DNA of 64,000 nucleotides from positions 46,562,001 through 46,626,000 of the forward strand of contig OX597828.1 of NCBI GenBank assembly GCA_951406725.2, in the 5' to 3' direction. Source of the DNA: Octopus vulgaris. Its lineage: Eukaryota. The notes under the pieces were generated by a model. That model worked only from the letters and a program-made list of their open reading frames with translations, did not search any database and was not told the DNA's origin. Position numbers and translations under genes: made by a program. The stretch's first letter is position 1; every line of letters starts with the position of its first letter. Below, one piece after another: positions 2,998 to 60,367 of this stretch.

Positions 2998-4079
<1,082 letters not shown>

Positions 4080-10609: not shown

Positions 10610-10677
<68 letters not shown>

Positions 10678-10684
<7 letters not shown>

Positions 10685-11019
10685 TCAATATATATATATA
10701 ATTAATCAATATAGGGTGGCAAAAAAAATTTTGTAGAATTCTTTTGCCACCAGCGGCCTAGTGGGAAAAAAATTAAATAGTCATAAACCATTTTTAAGTT
10801 CAACATCACAATCAAGGAACGGCCATAATAGGCCATTCACCCACTAGAAATAACAGCCAAAAAGCTTTAACCGCAAAATAACGTCAATTCCGTAAACCAG
10901 GAGAAAATTAAATGTTTTTTAATTTTCTCCTGGTTTACGGAATTGACGTTATTTTGCGGTTAAAGCTTTTGGCTGTTATTTCTAGTGGGTGAATGGCCTA
11001 TTATGGCCGTTCCTTGATT

Positions 11020-11024
<5 letters not shown>
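10678..11024. mobile_element. Truncated, fold-back (inverted) insertion of the 491-bp retrozyme-like element
   Basis: 10699-10912 matches the first ~215 bp of the unit at 51301. 10805-11024 is a ~108-bp-arm palindrome. (TA)n flanks. Confidence 0.92.
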
Positions 11025-14328: not shown

Positions 14329-16045
14329 ACCAGGTCGATGTGCTTGTGGATCGACACTATGACGGTGACGACGTCCCCGTATGCAGACACGCTCGTCCTG
14401 CATCACATCTCTCGTGGGATGCCCCTCAGTGTTGCCAGTTTCCGCAATAGTGGCTCAAGAGTCAATACATACCGACGCGATGAGAGGGGGCATCCTTGGC
14501 GAACCGAACGCATGATGTTAAAAGCTTTAGATAGATGACCATTTACGCGAACTGCCGAGCGGATGCCGCTGTATAAGGCAGCGATCAAACCGCAGAAGAT
14601 GGGATCGAAACCAGCCGCTTTAAGTACAGCCTCCAAGTAGTGATGGTCTACCCTAACGAAGGCTTTTGATTGATCCAAATTGATCAGCGCCCCACCCATG
14701 CCAGGATCCTTAACTACCCTGTCTATGATGTAGCGCATCAGATGGAGGTTGTCATGGATACTCCTACCCGACACGGCGCACGTTTGCGCCTTGTCAACTA
14801 GTTTTTCGATGACAAGTGCCAACCTCTCGGCTAACACCATGGCCAAAATTTTCAAATCTGCGTTGAACAGAGTGATGGGCCTGAAATTATCTATGACGTC
14901 CCACTTGTTTGGATCTTTCTTTAGCAGTGCCACTGCTCCTTGCTTTACAAAGGCGGGGATACTCCCGTTTTGCTACCAGTTGCAGGAGACAGCTGCTAAG
15001 TCGCCTCCAAACAAGTCTGGCATATGACAATAAAGTTCGTAGTGCAGACCATCTAAGCCTGGTGACTTGTCTCTCGCGCAGCCTGGCACCGCATCCCGTA
15101 TGTCTGCGGATGTGATGGGTTTTTCACAACACTCCGCCTCTCTTGCTGAGAGTCGTGGCAGGGCATGCAGGTAGGCACTAAAGTCCACTCTGCGTTCTGG
15201 CCCACCACTTGTCCCAAACAGTTGGGTAAAGTGTTGTTGAAAAGCCTCACACATCCTTTCAGACTGGAGTAATCCGCGCCCCTGTTCATCTGTAAGTGAC
15301 CTGATGGTGGCTCTGTTGCCTCGTTGCGTCTCCACCACTCGGGCCCCCCCGGGCGGCTCCAAATCCTTCGTTCCTCAGAGCATGCATCCTAACTCTGACA
15401 ATGCATCCTTCGTGTTTGGCGTTGAGATGCTGGTCGAGGGCCAACCTCGCTGCCAGTACGTTGGAAGCGATGCCAGATCTAAGTGCCTCATCTGAATTCT
15501 TAACTAAGTCTCCCTCTATTCTATTTCGGTCTAATGCTAAGGCCTTACTGTACATAACCGATTCTGTTTTAATTGCTTTCTTTAGAGTATACCACCATCT
15601 TTTGTTGATGATGGCACACCGTCAAAGCTCTCTTAACTAATGTGCTAATCCTGTCCCTGTAAGCGTGGCGTGTCGTGAAAGATGCGTTCGACTTCCAGTA
15701 ACCAGGACCCTGCCTATGAGTCTTATCTAAGTCAAGTGTACAAGTCACAAGTTTGTGGTCTGTGTAGCTGACTATATGGAACTATGGACAACCTACACTA
15801 TCTTTATCTACTGTCCTACAGAGTACTCTATCTAAGTACGACCTGGACGACCCGATGCGGTTGCTCCATTTCACCATTGGCACATTCGGGTGGTCCAGTC
15901 GGTACCTGTCAGTTGGAAACGTCTCAGCAGGTCTTTGAGGCATCTGCATCCCCTCCTATTACTATCTCTGCCCACGTAATCTAGATGCGTGTCCAGGGTG
16001 GCGTTCCAATATCCCACTAAAAGTAAAGGTCGAGACGTACCCAGG
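14329..16045 (-). mobile_element. Decayed Tx1/L1-clade LINE ORF2 (APE endonuclease plus RT)
   Basis: LVGYWNATLD, SYLDRVL and TDHKLV (APE); KSPGLDGL, FRPITLFNADLKILA, LDQSKAF, RQGCPLS, and YADD decayed to YGDV. Stops and frameshifts present. 5' truncation abuts (GATA)n. Confidence 0.92.
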
Positions 16046-49331: not shown

Positions 49332-50308
49332 CTACATTTTTAACTCCATATATAAATATATACTTATATATATATATATGTGCACACACATATACATATA
49401 TATATACTTATATCTAGATCTATATATGCACACACACACACAAACAAACATATGTGTGTGTGTGTATGCATATGTATAAATATATATATATATACATACA
49501 TATACATACTGCTACACATATGTGTATACATAGTTATATGTGTATATGTGAGTACGTGTTCATGAATATAGATTACGACTGATGTTTTGTTATTCTTTTT
49601 GGTTTACATGTTTTTCTTATTCTTTCTTCAACGAAACCAATTTCTCAAACAACAGATTTTATTGTATTTTGTACTGTTTTGTTTCTTTTCGTTTGTTTAA
49701 TTGTCTTGTTTGTTTTGTCTTGTTTTTTTTGTTTTTTTGTTTTTCTTGCTTTCGCGGGGACGGTTAAGATTTGTTGGTGGCGAGGGTGTTGCTTACATTT
49801 ATTTTATTTCATATTCAATGTGATATCTATTCTAGATTGTTTACTGTGGTCTACTAGTTGACCCAGTCTACATATTAATAACAAGATGTCTATAGATAGA
49901 CTGGGACAACATTAACCCAGTAACATGTGAAATGAATTGTGCTGACACTAGTTAACAGCTTGAGTTAAAACAAAACAAAATACACACTCAACACGAGTTT
50001 AGTGTCTCACTCGATCCATAAGTAATATTTCTGCATTTTTTAAGCAATGTTTATTGGTGTACGGTTTTTAATGTAACAGCCTGAATGAAAGAAAGGATCG
50101 TCATCTCGATATCTCGAGTGAAATCTTTTATTTAAACTTGAGTGCGATAAACAGTATTTACGAAAATTACATTATTTTGTGTAATCTCTGACTGAAGTAT
50201 AATAACATTGAATAAAGAGTTTTTTCGTAAATCTCTATACGAATGTCTTTAACAATAATTTGCATAATTGCGTGATTGACACGAAAACGTCATCTCAAGT
50301 TAGGTGAC

Positions 50309-50357
<49 letters not shown>

Positions 50358-50359
<2 letters not shown>

Positions 50360-50770
50360 TCTTTTACTCTTTTACTTGTTTCAGTCATTTGACTGCGGCC
50401 ATGCTGGAGCACCGCCTTTAATCGAGCAACTCGACCCCGAGACTTATTCTTTTTTTTTGTAAGCCCAGTACTTATTTTATCGGTCTCTTTTGCCGAACCG
50501 CTAAGTAACGGGGACATAAACACACCAGCATCGGTTGTCAAGCAATGCTAGGGGGACAAATACAGACACACAAACACACACACGCATATATATATATATA
50601 CATATATACGACGGGCTTCTTTCAGTTTCCGTCTACCAAATCCACTCACAAGGCTTTGGTCGGCCCGAGGCTATAGTAGAAGACACTTGCCCAAGGTGCC
50701 ACGCAGTGGGACTGAACCCGGAACCATGTGGTTGGTAAACAAGCTACTTACCACACAGCCACTCCTGCGC
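50358..50770 (-). mobile_element. Full-length SINE family A
   Basis: Complete head and tail. Confidence 0.92.
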
Positions 50771-51037
50771 ATATATATATATATATATATAATTAATCAA
50801 TATAGGGTGGCAAAATAAAAATTTGTAGAATTCTTTTGCCACCAGCGGCCTAGTGGGAAAAAATTAAATAGTCATAAACCAGTTTTAAGTTCAACATCAC
50901 AATCAAGGAACGGCCATAATAGGCCATTCACCCACTAGAAATAACAGCCAAAAGCTTTAACCGCAAAATAACGTCAATTCCGTAAACCAGGAGAAAATTA
51001 AAAAACCAGGAGAAAATTAAAAAACATTTACCCTGTA

Positions 51038-51144
51038 ATTTCTTAGACGATGCACCGTTTCATCTACTGTTTAATGGAAAACTAACCTGATTAAATTAAA
51101 TCAAGCCAATCTACCATAGGCCCTTAGATTCATCAGTAAGAAAT
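51038..51144 (-). ncRNA. Type-I hammerhead ribozyme (unit 1)
   Basis: AUUUCUUA-CUGAUGA-AUCUA-[long hairpin]-UAGAU-GAAAC-GGUGCAUC-GUC^UAAGAAAU. 8-bp stem I. Cleavage predicted between 51046 and 51045. Confidence 0.92.
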
Positions 51145-51528
51145 AGCCAAGCCGGAACAGATATTTTTCACGAGGCATTCTCGTTGCTACCTCGTCAATA
51201 TCTGACCTAAAATTTTCAAATCGTCGCACTCGCGCCAAATTTATCGGCAGCAAATAAATATAAGCCGCCGATTCCATTACGGAATTAACCAGAAAATTCA
51301 TAATTAATCAATATAGGGTGGCAAAAAAAAATTTTGTAGAATTCTTTTGCCACCAGCGGCCTAGTGGGAAAAAATTAAATAGTCATAAACCATTTTAAGT
51401 TCAACATCACAATCAAGGAACGGCCATAATAGGCCATTCACCCACTAGAAATAACAGCCAAAAGCTTTAACCGCAAAATAACGTCAATTCCGTAAACCAG
51501 GAGAAAATTAAAAAACATTTACCCTGTA

Positions 51529-51635
51529 ATTTCTTAGACGATGCACCGTTTCATCTACTGTTTAATGGAAAACTAACCTGATTAAATTAAATCAAGCCAA
51601 TCTACCATAGGCCCTTAGATTCATCAGTAAGAAAT
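51529..51635 (-). ncRNA. Type-I hammerhead ribozyme (unit 2)
   Basis: Identical to unit 1. Confidence 0.92.
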
Positions 51636-52020
51636 AGCCAAGCCGGAACAGATATTTTTCACGAGGCATTCTCGTTGCTACCTCGTCAATATCTGACCTA
51701 AAATTTTCAAATCGTCGCACTCGCGCCAAATTTATCGGCAGCAAATAAATATAAGCCGCCGATTCCATTACGGAATTAACCAGAAAATTCATAATTAATC
51801 AATATAGGGTGGCAAAAAAAAATTTTGTAGAATTCTTTTGCCACCAGCGGCCTAGTGGGAAAAAATTAAATAGTCATAAACCATTTTTAAGTTCAACATC
51901 ACAATCAAGGAACGGCCATAATAGGCCATTCACCCACTAGAAATAACAGCCAAAAGCTTTAACCGCAAAATAACGTCAATTCCGTAAACCAGGAGAAAAT
52001 TAAAAAACATTTACCCTGTA

Positions 52021-52127
52021 ATTTCTTAGACGATGCACCGTTTCATCTACTGTTTAATGGAAAACTAACCTGATTAAATTAAATCAAGCCAATCTACCAT
52101 AGGCCCTTAGATTCATCAGTAAGAAAT
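52021..52127 (-). ncRNA. Type-I hammerhead ribozyme (unit 3)
   Basis: Identical to unit 1. Confidence 0.92.
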
Positions 52128-52246
52128 AGCCAAGCCGGAACAGATATTTTTCACGAGGCATTCTCGTTGCTACCTCGTCAATATCTGACCTAAAATTTTC
52201 AAATCGTCGCACTCGCGCCAAATTTATCGGCAGCAAATAAATGATT

Positions 52247-52291
<45 letters not shown>

Positions 52292-57101: not shown

Positions 57102-57545
57102 TAAATGGAGGAACAAATTCATTTCAATCATCAACTTACAGATATTACCATTTCATATTATTTATTAACTATATAAAAAGGAACATCCAAATCGAACAAA
57201 ACAATATACATCAATATGCAAGATAATAATACCATAAGAATAATACACATAAAATGGCCCTTACAGCTGTTTCAGCCTATAGATAAAAGTATCTCATTCT
57301 GCCTATATTAGTCAGATGTATTGAGGTAATATATTGGATAACTAATATCCCATAGTGGGTTACCCTCATAACCCCTGTCTTACTTTTTACAATATATATA
57401 TATGCTTTGCGTACGGTAGATGACTTCAGTAAAATTTAGATTCAGATGAATATGGTACTTAAGTTGAGGCACAAGAATTTAGTACGGTATTTTCCATTCA
57501 ATTTCCAAGTAAGGTGTTTCAAATCAAAATAAGCAACAAGGTCAG

Positions 57546-57630
57546 GCAGTACGATCGTTTCCTGCAACTCCATTTAATTGAGCAATGCAATCATTACATC
57601 AATTTAAAATGCAGAAGAATCTTCAGCTGC
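57546..57630 (-). ncRNA. Hammerhead motif with long stem II
   Basis: GCAG-CUGAAGA-..UGCA...UGCAG-GAAAC-GAUC-GUA^CUGC. Confidence 0.7.
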
Positions 57631-58027
57631 ACAAAGACATAGAATTTAATTAAATTTGAACAGATGGACACATTTGTATAATCATACCTAAAATCTCCAA
57701 TCCGTTAAGAAGATAGACAAAGAACATGTTGTTTCACTCCAGTTTAGAAGTTACTGAAATTTTCAAGAAGATATACATTGTTACAGATTCTGCCTGTGAC
57801 TGATATTTTTGTTTTTATGGGGTCAGTTTTAATTTATAGACTATTTTATCAAATCCCTTGTATATCTAACGCTGAGAGAACAGAGGGCAGTATTCGTTTG
57901 TGACTGCAGGAAGGGAAATGATGATTCAAATTGTTGCTGTTGTTGATGAGGATGATGATGATGATAATTGATAATGATCACAATGATGGTGATGTGGGTG
58001 GTAGTGGTTATGTCTAAGGCGAAGATC

Positions 58028-58114
58028 TGCAGCTGAAGATTGCTCTGCATTTTAAATTGATGAAATGATTGCATTGTTCAAGTAAATTGAGTTGCATGAA
58101 ACGATCGTACTGTA
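58028..58114 (+). ncRNA. Hammerhead motif, inverted copy of 57546-57630
   Basis: UGCAG-CUGAAGA-UUGC...GCAU-GAAAC-GAUC-GUA^CUGUA. Confidence 0.7.
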
Positions 58115-58140
58115 TTACCTCTGGATGTCCTTGTTAGTTA

Positions 58141-58205
<65 letters not shown>

Positions 58206-58686
58206 TGAGAGAGAGAGAGAGATAGAGAGAGAGAGAGTATTAATTAATAGTAGGAGATGGATTTCGTATTATACTTTTATTAGGTACAACATATGTTTCG
58301 TCCGATCAGTTTGGGTTTCACTAGAGATTTTCATTGTTGACTAGCTCCTTATATATCCATCAAGAGAGAGTTGTCTGTGTGTGTGTTTATATATATATAT
58401 ATATATACACACATTTGATGGATACTCTATCAAATCAACGTTGTCTGAAAAGGTGCCCAGTTTACCACGTTCAGTTGTCGAAGCGATCACATTATATATA
58501 TATATATATACAATTTATAAAAGACATGCTAATAGTTTCAGACCTGCTAATACTTTAGAAGTAATGTAGTTTATTTGGCACATTTATATGGCATGCCATG
58601 TATCTCGAAGCAATCTTTCAGGTCTGAAAAATGCTTGGAGATACATATGTACATATAGGAAAAACAGGGGCCATGAATTTGTCATA

Positions 58687-58811
58687 TCCATTACGATCGT
58701 TTCAGCGATCCATAATCAAGCTCCATGAATAAATAAAATTTATAATTTATAATTTACAGCTTATAAACTATGTTCAATCATATTGATCAACAGCCACTTT
58801 CATCAGACGGA
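58687..58811 (-). ncRNA. Hammerhead motif with ~90-nt stem II insertion
   Basis: UCCGU-CUGAUGA-A-AGUGG...UCGCU-GAAAC-GAUC-GUA^AUGGA. Confidence 0.72.
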
Positions 58812-60367
58812 GGTGAAATAGAAGCTAAACATAATGGCTCAACTTTTTTAAAACAAACCTATGAAATGTTCGTTCGAGGAGCAGTGACCTGAATTACTCC
58901 CTGGTTTCACTTGCTCCGGTCACAACGAATTCTAATGCGACAGTATCCAACGTGTTCAATTTCTTTTTCACTACAGCAACCATTAATATTGGTTTCAAGC
59001 TTTTGCAGAGAGCCAGCAAGTTCCTGGAGATGGTAAGTTGATGACATCATCCTCAGTGTTCAATTGGTTATCGTTTTATCGATCCCTAAAGGATGAAAGG
59101 CAAAGTAGACCTTAGCGGAATTTGAATTCAGAACGTTAAGACAGATGAAATGCCACTAATTATTTTGCCTAGCGTGCTAACTCTTCTGCCAGCTCGTCCC
59201 TTTATAGCAACGTGTAATATTATATCAAGGCAGCCCCTGTGATTTAAAGTTTTACTTCTGTACTGTTTCTACTGCCCATCCATGGCAGGAGATATCCATG
59301 CGTTAATCTCTTGTCTGAAGAGGACTGTTCACCGTATTACTCATAAGAATAGTGAAGCTGTCTTTGTGTCTATCAATGCTTATTTTCTCACGGAACTGGA
59401 TGGAGCTCATAATTCCAGCGTGTTGGGTGTGTAAGAGTTGGGAAATTGCTTTGAAAGAATGTTTCAAGGAAGTATCTGCATACAATTCAATATTGAAGCT
59501 GTAACCGCTCCTAGCTAAGACCTCATTTTATTATTGTGCATTGTTACTTAAAATTTGCTCGTTGGCCGAAAGAGTGGATAGTCGTATGGATAAATATTTT
59601 ACAAACCCCTAATTATGGGTCAGGGTGACAAAAGGATTTATTGATGTCATATAGCAACATATTACTTTTATATAATCCTATCCGGTAACCGAGTGTAAGA
59701 TATGGGAAATTAACCACTTTTAATCTGTGATAGCGAGGTAAAGAGTGAAGCCATAGTTTTTAAAGAATTTATGGATAATCATTCAAGCTTTCTCTTTGGC
59801 TGGAGTAGCGTAACATACCAAAGTATGTGTTTCCTTATACATAGCACTGCTTAAGTCAGGGGAATGTATTGCTAATTTATACGGGAGGTATAAATTCGTC
59901 AGATACGTTACCCGAAATGTGTGAGAGGAACCCGCTGCAACATTACAGTTTTCGATGCGAGATTTTCTTGCTCAAATGTAAACCTCTTGAAAAGGATACT
60001 AGTAATTCTAGTTGTAAGTATGGCTTCATAATCTGGCACAAGGATGGAATAAGTCGATTTCAAGAAAGCGATAATTGATTGCATCATCCTCAGCGACCCA
60101 TCACTATTTACTCAACCGATCCTGAAAAGAGGAAGGACTAACTCGATCTCAGAATTTGAACTGAGAAGGCAAAAAGCCGGAAGATATACCGTTGAGAATT
60201 TTGTCCGGCGTGCGAACGATTCACTCAGCTGACCGTAATATTTCTAGCTCTAAGTATAACATCTAATTCTATCAAGGAGATTTTAGTAGACATTCCACGA
60301 CGATGTGAGTCTGTGTGTGTCTGTATGTGTATGTGTATCAGTATGCATCTGTGTCTCTTTGTATGTA

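Follow-up and report, generated by a model that had tools for sequence, protein, structure and literature searches.

Twin-armed insertions of a 491-nt hammerhead ribozyme repeat in Octopus vulgaris: a candidate non-LTR retrozyme probably moved by a Penelope-like element

Introduction

At one locus of the Octopus vulgaris genome, a tandem array carrying successive hammerhead ribozyme motifs interrupts a (TA)n tract, which raises the question of what kind of element this is and how it was copied and inserted. The array lies in a 64,000-nt stretch of DNA (assembly GCA_951406725.2, contig OX597828.1, positions 46,562,001 to 46,626,000 of the forward strand; hereafter the window). The original prediction, made from the letters of the window, regarded it as a tandem hammerhead retroelement, young and non-coding, that targets (TA)n and is moved by a Penelope-like reverse transcriptase, a reading that fits all of the genomic tests reported here.

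Non-LTR retrozymes, their circular RNAs and their proposed mobilisation by Penelope-like elements (PLEs) have been described (PMC7229834, PMC7761336; consulted, like all papers cited here, in part). Two models have been published for the mobilisation of animal retrozymes: the copying of a circle by a PLE reverse transcriptase (RT), and local tandem growth from a pLTR. In its accessible text, a 2026 preprint (Li, Clavereau, Pollet; 10.64898/2026.07.22.740005) reports that pLTR homology is frequent in Xenopus and considers amplification in place; it does not decide on a mechanism of mobilisation, and has no mollusc among the groups that it names. As for PLEs themselves, the sections available to us describe an inverted truncated copy, a tail of 30-40 bp often present at one end only and a bias towards (TA)n (Craig et al. 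2021, PMC8557442), as well as a PLE protein that nicks and extends both strands, with two internal RNA start sites bounding the tail and a predicted dimer (Frangieh et al. 2024, PMC11167929).

Our literature search brought up neither a cephalopod retrozyme nor a twin-arm analysis of one, with supplements, Repbase, Dfam and subscription papers lying outside its range. The class and its link to PLEs are thus already published; the analysis of insertion architecture and the cephalopod family appear to be new.

Results

The array in the window

The features on which the analysis is based are listed below in window coordinates. Sites A and B are the two fixed positions of the unit at which the arms of an insertion end, and at which reverse transcription would have started.

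10698..11024, no strand: second independent insertion of the 491-nt family, in (TA)n, with a 215-nt A arm and an inverted 116-nt B arm
50771..50789, no strand: left half of the target tract, (TA)n, which merges at its edge with the first bases of the A arm (sequence and flank read-out)
50789..52242, minus: A arm, 2.96 units; in RNA sense its left edge is the 3' end, located at fixed start site A
51038..51144, minus: type-I hammerhead, copy 1, H17 at 51046
51301..51791, minus: reference monomer, 491 nt
51301..51406, minus: 105-nt 'tail' between sites B and A (B at unit position 106, window 51406; A at unit position 491/1)
51529..51635, minus: type-I hammerhead, copy 2, H17 at 51537
52021..52127, minus: type-I hammerhead, copy 3, H17 at 52029
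52242..52251, plus: B arm, 10 nt, inverted, ending at site B and sharing 1 nt with the A arm where the two meet
52250..52286, no strand: right half of the (TA)n target tract

The array consists of head-to-tail units of a 491-nt repeat, with 98.4% identity to unit 2. The units are not identical to one another, and unit 1 contains a 19-nt internal duplication. Three minus-strand motifs of the form CUGAUGA...GAAA...GUC are spaced 491 and 492 nt apart, so that the original count of about 2.9 near-identical units with these spacings was accurate. The longest stop-to-stop frame within the array is 68 aa, and the array is accordingly non-coding; a tRNA search of it found none, and no LTR structure was visible in the examined arrays. 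The GC content over window positions 50001-52000 is 0.36.

Site A is located 236 nt downstream of the cleavage site and site B 131 nt downstream of it. Each of the two follows UUGAUU by 3-4 nt, and a strong hairpin lies just upstream of site A, inside the tail. The array had been described as starting and ending mid-monomer, and both ends do so; the right end, though, is no plain truncation and is formed by the inverted B arm. The architecture of two arms and two start sites was missed at that stage. In the second insertion listed above the ribozyme is absent, the arms being too short to reach it.

Two other repeats of the window were recorded. A dispersed common repeat at 50359-50770, which we take to be a SINE, carries the TA tail that appears to have been the target of the array insertion. 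Broken LINE-type reverse transcriptase frames at 14403-15374 (minus strand) are unrelated to the array; they were labelled from their translation, with no family search.

The hammerhead ribozyme

Each of the three hammerheads has an 8-bp stem I and the CUGAUGA, GAAA and GUC elements. In copy 2, stem II is a 5-bp helix carrying a 68-nt insert that forms a long hairpin, and stem III is self-complementary. The initial description of the motif as fully canonical type I therefore applies to its core and has to be given up for stem II, with its long insert, and for the short palindromic stem III; a stable stem III and a short loop 2 contacting stem I, which mark canonical fast monomeric type-I ribozymes, are both lacking. 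The Infernal search against Rfam that had been suggested as a check gave no hammerhead in the window, either at the gathering score or at E<=10, probably because of the stem II insert. Hammerheads with such inserts slip past Rfam, and families of this kind may be undercounted. Four weak Rfam matches were rejected as hairpin look-alikes scoring far below their own gathering scores.

Among 206 ribozyme copies from the fetched loci, 197 retain the core, GAAA and GUH (163 GUC and 34 GUA). Covariation was examined in 43 of the 71 distinct rows, comprising the window and the more divergent copies. In this set N7 takes all four bases and H17 also varies freely, 99.1% of the cells pair, and four pairs (20 cells) are changed on both sides. 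Twenty covarying cells were reached in none of 500 shuffles and four pairs in 97 of 500; slid controls gave 0-1. Stem III is self-complementary throughout, its centre changing from GC to AU in seven rows. Judged by this comparison of copies, the putative ribozyme is under selection.

The unit is predicted to be strongly folded as a circle (z of -6.7 against 40 shuffles). The active fold of the monomer is predicted to lie 3.3 kcal/mol above the minimum, with a probability of about 0.001 in a model that leaves tertiary contacts aside, and stem III has a predicted probability of at most 0.01 in the circle. Conversely, a self-duplex of the 12-mer of stem III has a predicted energy of -17.5 kcal/mol. 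Hammerheads with a palindromic helix III are described, in the portion of PMC4209133 consulted, as cleaving as dimers and as being active in multimers and inactive in monomer circles. Taken with the folding model, the palindromic stem III points to cleavage as a dimer, a type of stem III also present in amphibian retrozymes as far as the texts consulted describe them. According to the accessible text of 10.64898/2026.07.22.740005, eight of nine Xenopus retrozyme dimers were uncleaved in vitro.

Distribution of the family in the genome

The genome (2.8 Gb in 227 contigs) was searched with the unit, as had been proposed when the array was first noticed. The search yielded at least 195 matches in the 40 candidates scored out of 1,075, the full-length ones being 96-100% identical. 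An invariant 23-mer of stem II, counted as representing ribozyme copies, occurs 2,883 times. Exact TA-flanked ends were found at least 763 times for site A and 433 times for site B, while reversed-pattern controls gave 0. The family thus occupies hundreds of dispersed loci on different chromosomes, with units that are 98-100% identical. Position-ordered samples also hold older copies, mostly 85-98% identical, which together with the near-identical ones indicate that the family was active over a period and very recently.

Contigs of four sequencing runs (three guessed to be RNA, and one large) cover all 29 bins of the unit and include the head-to-tail joint in three of the four runs, as well as TA-flanked ends; these contigs do not discriminate between a circle, a tandem transcript and DNA. 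Two diverged sister elements of about 70% identity (L082 and L093:2380-2970) share the A-type end and the two-arm shape.

Insertions consist of two inverted arms with fixed outer ends

The shape of the insertions was studied at 38 long arrays, 30 loci anchored at an A end and 30 anchored at a B end; after the removal of six duplicates 92 remained, about a tenth of the loci. In most of those examined there are two arms in inverted orientation, each with its RNA-sense 3' end on the outside, next to (TA)n; the inner join between them is variable, usually with an overlap of 0-7 nt or a few extra bases. The outer ends were paired as A-B in 60 of the 92 loci and as A-A in one, with no B-B pair; on inspection the single A-A locus is a one-armed insertion, and its score is hence spurious. 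Of the other 31 loci, nine ran beyond the limits of the fetched sequence, and the rest had no TA on one side or an unassignable end. Among the unanchored long arrays the A-B combination was seen in 29 of 38, and in the first 100 listed ribozyme places all 15 two-orientation clusters, counted by eye, face with their 3' ends outward. The window array obeys the same rule, and a B arm as short as its own is also found at locus L081. One insertion outside (TA)n (L067) has a target duplication of 10-12 bp; elsewhere (TA)n hides such duplications. By comparison with described PLEs, this two-arm, fixed-end shape bears the signature of PLE insertion.

At three places (window 10677-10698, L122 and L126) a short A-site start is followed by more TA and then by a second start, which looks like aborted priming followed by re-priming.

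The window holds a second hammerhead family, with a 397-nt unit (3485-4001, minus strand, H17 at 3657), also inserted in (TA)n. It has 585 candidates genome-wide, arrays of up to about seven units and one fixed end, which follows UUGAUU. Seven of its 33 partial-unit ends fall at unit positions 160-176, adjoining the cleavage site at 172-173. A convincing inverted arm was found at none of 14 variable ends; this family is one-armed, and the two-arm shape is therefore specific to the 491-nt family.

The template that was copied

Both ends are visible in 156 arms. At least one cleavage site was passed by 53 of 82 A arms and 55 of 74 B arms, and 22 of the 156 passed three or more, up to a maximum of 11. 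Since the arms read through cleavage sites, their template was not a cleaved linear monomer.

Private substitutions were compared at positions covered by both arms, with two loci that hold two insertions each (L068 and L108) excluded. Fifteen such substitutions, from seven of 59 two-armed loci, are present in every unit of both arms, two in some units only and 65 in a single unit; at L047 and L064 the private variants occur in six of six units. On the sequence evidence, this distribution points to one monomer having been copied repeatedly by both RTs. Three arrays are heterogeneous: L040 repeats a four-unit pattern, and single variants occur in 7 of 10 units of L038 and in 3 of 11 units of L035. 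This fits multimeric templates or circles, template switching or later duplication.

At unit positions 217-236, immediately 3' of the cleavage site, the termination of arms is raised 2.9-fold (20 ends in this 20-nt bin, one of 12; p=3e-5); the next two bins give 0.77-fold and 0.43-fold. The excess suggests that some templates were cut at the predicted site; it could also be due to stalling of the RT at stem I. Rolling-circle reverse transcription, as originally proposed, is suggested indirectly by the read-through, the excess of ends and the private variants present in both arms.

An alternative with some call on these data is that PLE twin priming took place on a linear, incompletely cleaved multimer transcribed from an array already in place; such a route dispenses with a circle and leaves the hammerhead only the trimming of 5' ends. 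It would account for the clustering of ends just inside the cleavage site, which includes later passes (7 of 20), for the four-unit periodicity and the mixed variants of the three heterogeneous arrays, and for the weak fold of the monomer; the in vitro substrate of a PLE protein is, in the text seen, an uncleaved RNA for which the hammerhead is dispensable (PMC11167929). An uncut multimer transcript of a homogeneous donor array could likewise transmit shared variants. Against this, variants present in all units of both arms (15, as opposed to two partial ones) require a step from monomer to multimer somewhere, and truncated copying can only shorten arrays, whereas near-identical arms reach 11 units and most unbiased arms are shorter than one unit. 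We consider a linear template unlikely, and favour copying from a predicted circle.

Penelope-like elements in the same genome

PLEs were collected by GIY-YIG and protein searches, in which 150 of 6,136, 120 of 25,319 and 150 of 9,930 candidates were scored. The genome holds young PLE families, PLE1 to PLE4, together with fragments of others; among the candidates scored, three have full-length intact ORFs. PLE1 (781 aa), PLE2 and PLE3 (775 aa) contain RT and GIY-YIG domains by Pfam and have two end sites in (TA)n, separated by 33-38 nt. Copies of PLE1 and PLE3 with both ends visible pair a short with a long end (L154, L156, L200, L181 and L192), and most copies are one-armed. These two families (L149-L162 and L170-L204) are young two-ORF elements with an overlapping upstream ORF and degenerate hammerhead cores.

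PLE4 (L212, G000:C25:7477300-7484400; L213-L252) is a very young autonomous family with a single ORF of 1311 aa (L212:2209-6141) in a 4,581-bp unit. It gave no match to Pfam at E<=0.1, and its classification as a PLE relies on blastp to PLE1-3 (best E about 3e-11) and on motif order. At least 150 matches at 98-100% identity include full-length head-to-tail tandems, with frequent twin arms; PLE4 may itself be copied from a circle. Its tail measures about 56 nt, and its hammerhead core is a variant one. In 20 twin-arm insertions of PLE4, a short end was paired with a long one in 17 by scoring and in two more on inspection (19 of 20), one end being out of range; like-with-like pairs were seen in none of the 20. 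The presumed cleavage site and the short site are separated by 127 nt, close to the 131 nt of site B. Inverted pairs counted by eye numbered 31 in 150 rows for PLE4, one in 122 for PLE3 and one in 150 for the GIY-YIG list, a rough comparison between queries of different length.

BLASTN of the 491-nt unit against the ends of PLE1-PLE4, as obtained from the scored candidates, found no similarity. With no DNA shared between the unit and these elements, the identity of the helper is judged by habit and age: PLE4, for its age and its short/long architecture, is the best candidate.

It had been pointed out at the outset that a unit always attached to a long PLE ORF would simply be a Penelope pLTR. 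One may still suppose that the unit is the pLTR or tail of an autonomous PLE outside those found, the arrays arising as by-products when its insertions were truncated; in Xenopus, homology between retrozymes and PLE pLTRs is described in the accessible text of 10.64898/2026.07.22.740005, and the PLE survey extended to the scored numbers of candidates given above. Yet an ORF continuous with the array was found at none of the 92 loci and at none of seven lone-ribozyme loci (about a tenth of the loci having been sampled), six of these seven having TA on both sides. PLE ORF fragments near arrays at nine loci are separate neighbours, and the non-TA junction sequences of nine arrays share only common repeats and no PLE ORF. 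Moreover, no same-strand ribozyme pair 3-7 kb apart was present among the first 100 listed places, and the head-to-tail joints are seamless in arrays of up to 11 units. We regard this origin as quite improbable.

Least probable, and largely refuted, is local satellite growth by unequal crossover from one inserted monomer, or an assembly artefact: the four-unit duplication of L040 is possibly local, and copy number per array is that of the assembly, but hundreds of dispersed loci with units 98-100% identical each have their own inner junction and two inverted multi-unit arms with variants common to both, the units of the window array differ, and the head-to-tail joint recurs in independent contigs of the large sequencing run.

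Discussion

Taken together, these results make it likely that the array belongs to a young, non-autonomous animal non-LTR retrozyme, moved through a predicted circle by the RT-endonuclease of a PLE using twin priming. Arrays would be transcribed as multimers, in which the hammerheads, to go by their fold and covariation, would cleave as dimers via the self-complementary stem III and release 491-nt monomers for circularisation by a host ligase. If published retrozymes are a guide, a lone circle should hardly be able to adopt the active fold and hence would persist. The PLE protein, which probably acts as a dimer, would then nick both strands of a (TA)n tract, and a single RNA would serve as template for two cDNAs, primed at sites A and B respectively, in keeping with the observed pairing of ends. 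Each RT would go round the template, presumed circular, between 0.02 and 11 times, read-through of this extent being present in the arms. The inner ends of the cDNAs would finally be joined, usually over 0-7 nt, which would give the two inverted arms with outward 3' ends that are seen in the genome.

More tentatively, and with rather less confidence than an even chance would warrant, a stronger version may be put forward, in which a viroid-like RNA circle of 491 nt attracts a dimeric PLE RT through its structure, while having no sequence relationship to this helper. The two subunits would then work simultaneously on that one circle by rolling-circle reverse transcription, each starting at a fixed site of its own. 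If this were true, the exclusive pairing of one short with one long site in each insertion would explain the PLE 'tail' in general, and the RNA of PLE4 itself, 4.58 kb in length, would be copied in like manner.

The family is very young, and each insertion preserves traces of how it arose, namely a single use of each of the two fixed starts, many passes and one template. Of the two published models, this record favours the copying of a circle by a PLE RT. It also offers an explanation for the one-ended tail of PLE insertions. The model lends itself to a direct test: the RNA is 491 nt long, the (TA)n target is simple, and three candidate PLE proteins with intact frames are encoded in the same genome.

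The octopus family shares with the animal non-LTR retrozymes of Acropora, Mytilus and axolotl (Cervera and de la Pena 2020, PMC7229834, as far as its accessible text goes) the tandem units, non-coding and each provided with a type-I hammerhead, the low GC content (<50%), the dispersed dimers to multimers and the co-occurring PLEs. It differs in several respects from retrozymes in the published texts seen. Circular RNA and cleavage have been demonstrated there, and the family described here is known from genomic sequence alone; the 68-nt stem II insert and the absence of homology to a PLE pLTR in our searches also set it apart. The words 'inverted' and 'microsatellite' occur 0 times in the portion of PMC7229834 that was accessible, whereas paired fixed ends, inverted arms and (TA)n targets characterise the present insertions. 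The unit length, at first thought unusual, is above the 150-450 range of PMC7229834 and within the 51-972 bp range given in the accessible text of 10.64898/2026.07.22.740005. Target duplications of retrozymes exceed 4 bp when present, a size with which the duplication at the one locus outside (TA)n may be compared.

Endonuclease PLEs with a Zn-finger linker (Neptune/Nematis, PMC8557442) and the anole Poseidon PAc (PMC11167929) resemble the family, in the sections consulted, in their inverted 5'-truncated arm, one-ended tail, two internal RT start sites downstream of a hammerhead and AT-rich or (TA)n target. Unlike them, it has no ORF, a tail of 105 nt rather than 30-40, multi-unit arms, and two arms as the rule (60 of 92) and not occasionally. 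The non-autonomous PLEs of Chlamys, such as MRC1 (PMC8557442, same portion), are likewise multicopy head-to-tail elements relying on PLE machinery; they generally resemble an autonomous partner at the 3' end and mostly have no canonical hammerhead, whereas the octopus unit has a conserved hammerhead and no matched partner.

In twin priming of LINE-1, two target nicks each prime cDNA synthesis, producing an inverted insertion joined by short overlaps. The octopus insertions differ in that both starts are fixed and internal, neither is at a poly(A), and both arms can exceed one template length.

Further hammerhead-like motifs were noticed in the window at 57500-57630, 58025-58120 and 58685-58815, and also at two other loci (L137 and L157). 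They have a long stem II and a palindromic CGAUCG stem III. One of these loci (L137) carries an inverted two-arm copy in (TA)n, by which the motifs probably represent a third retrozyme-like family.
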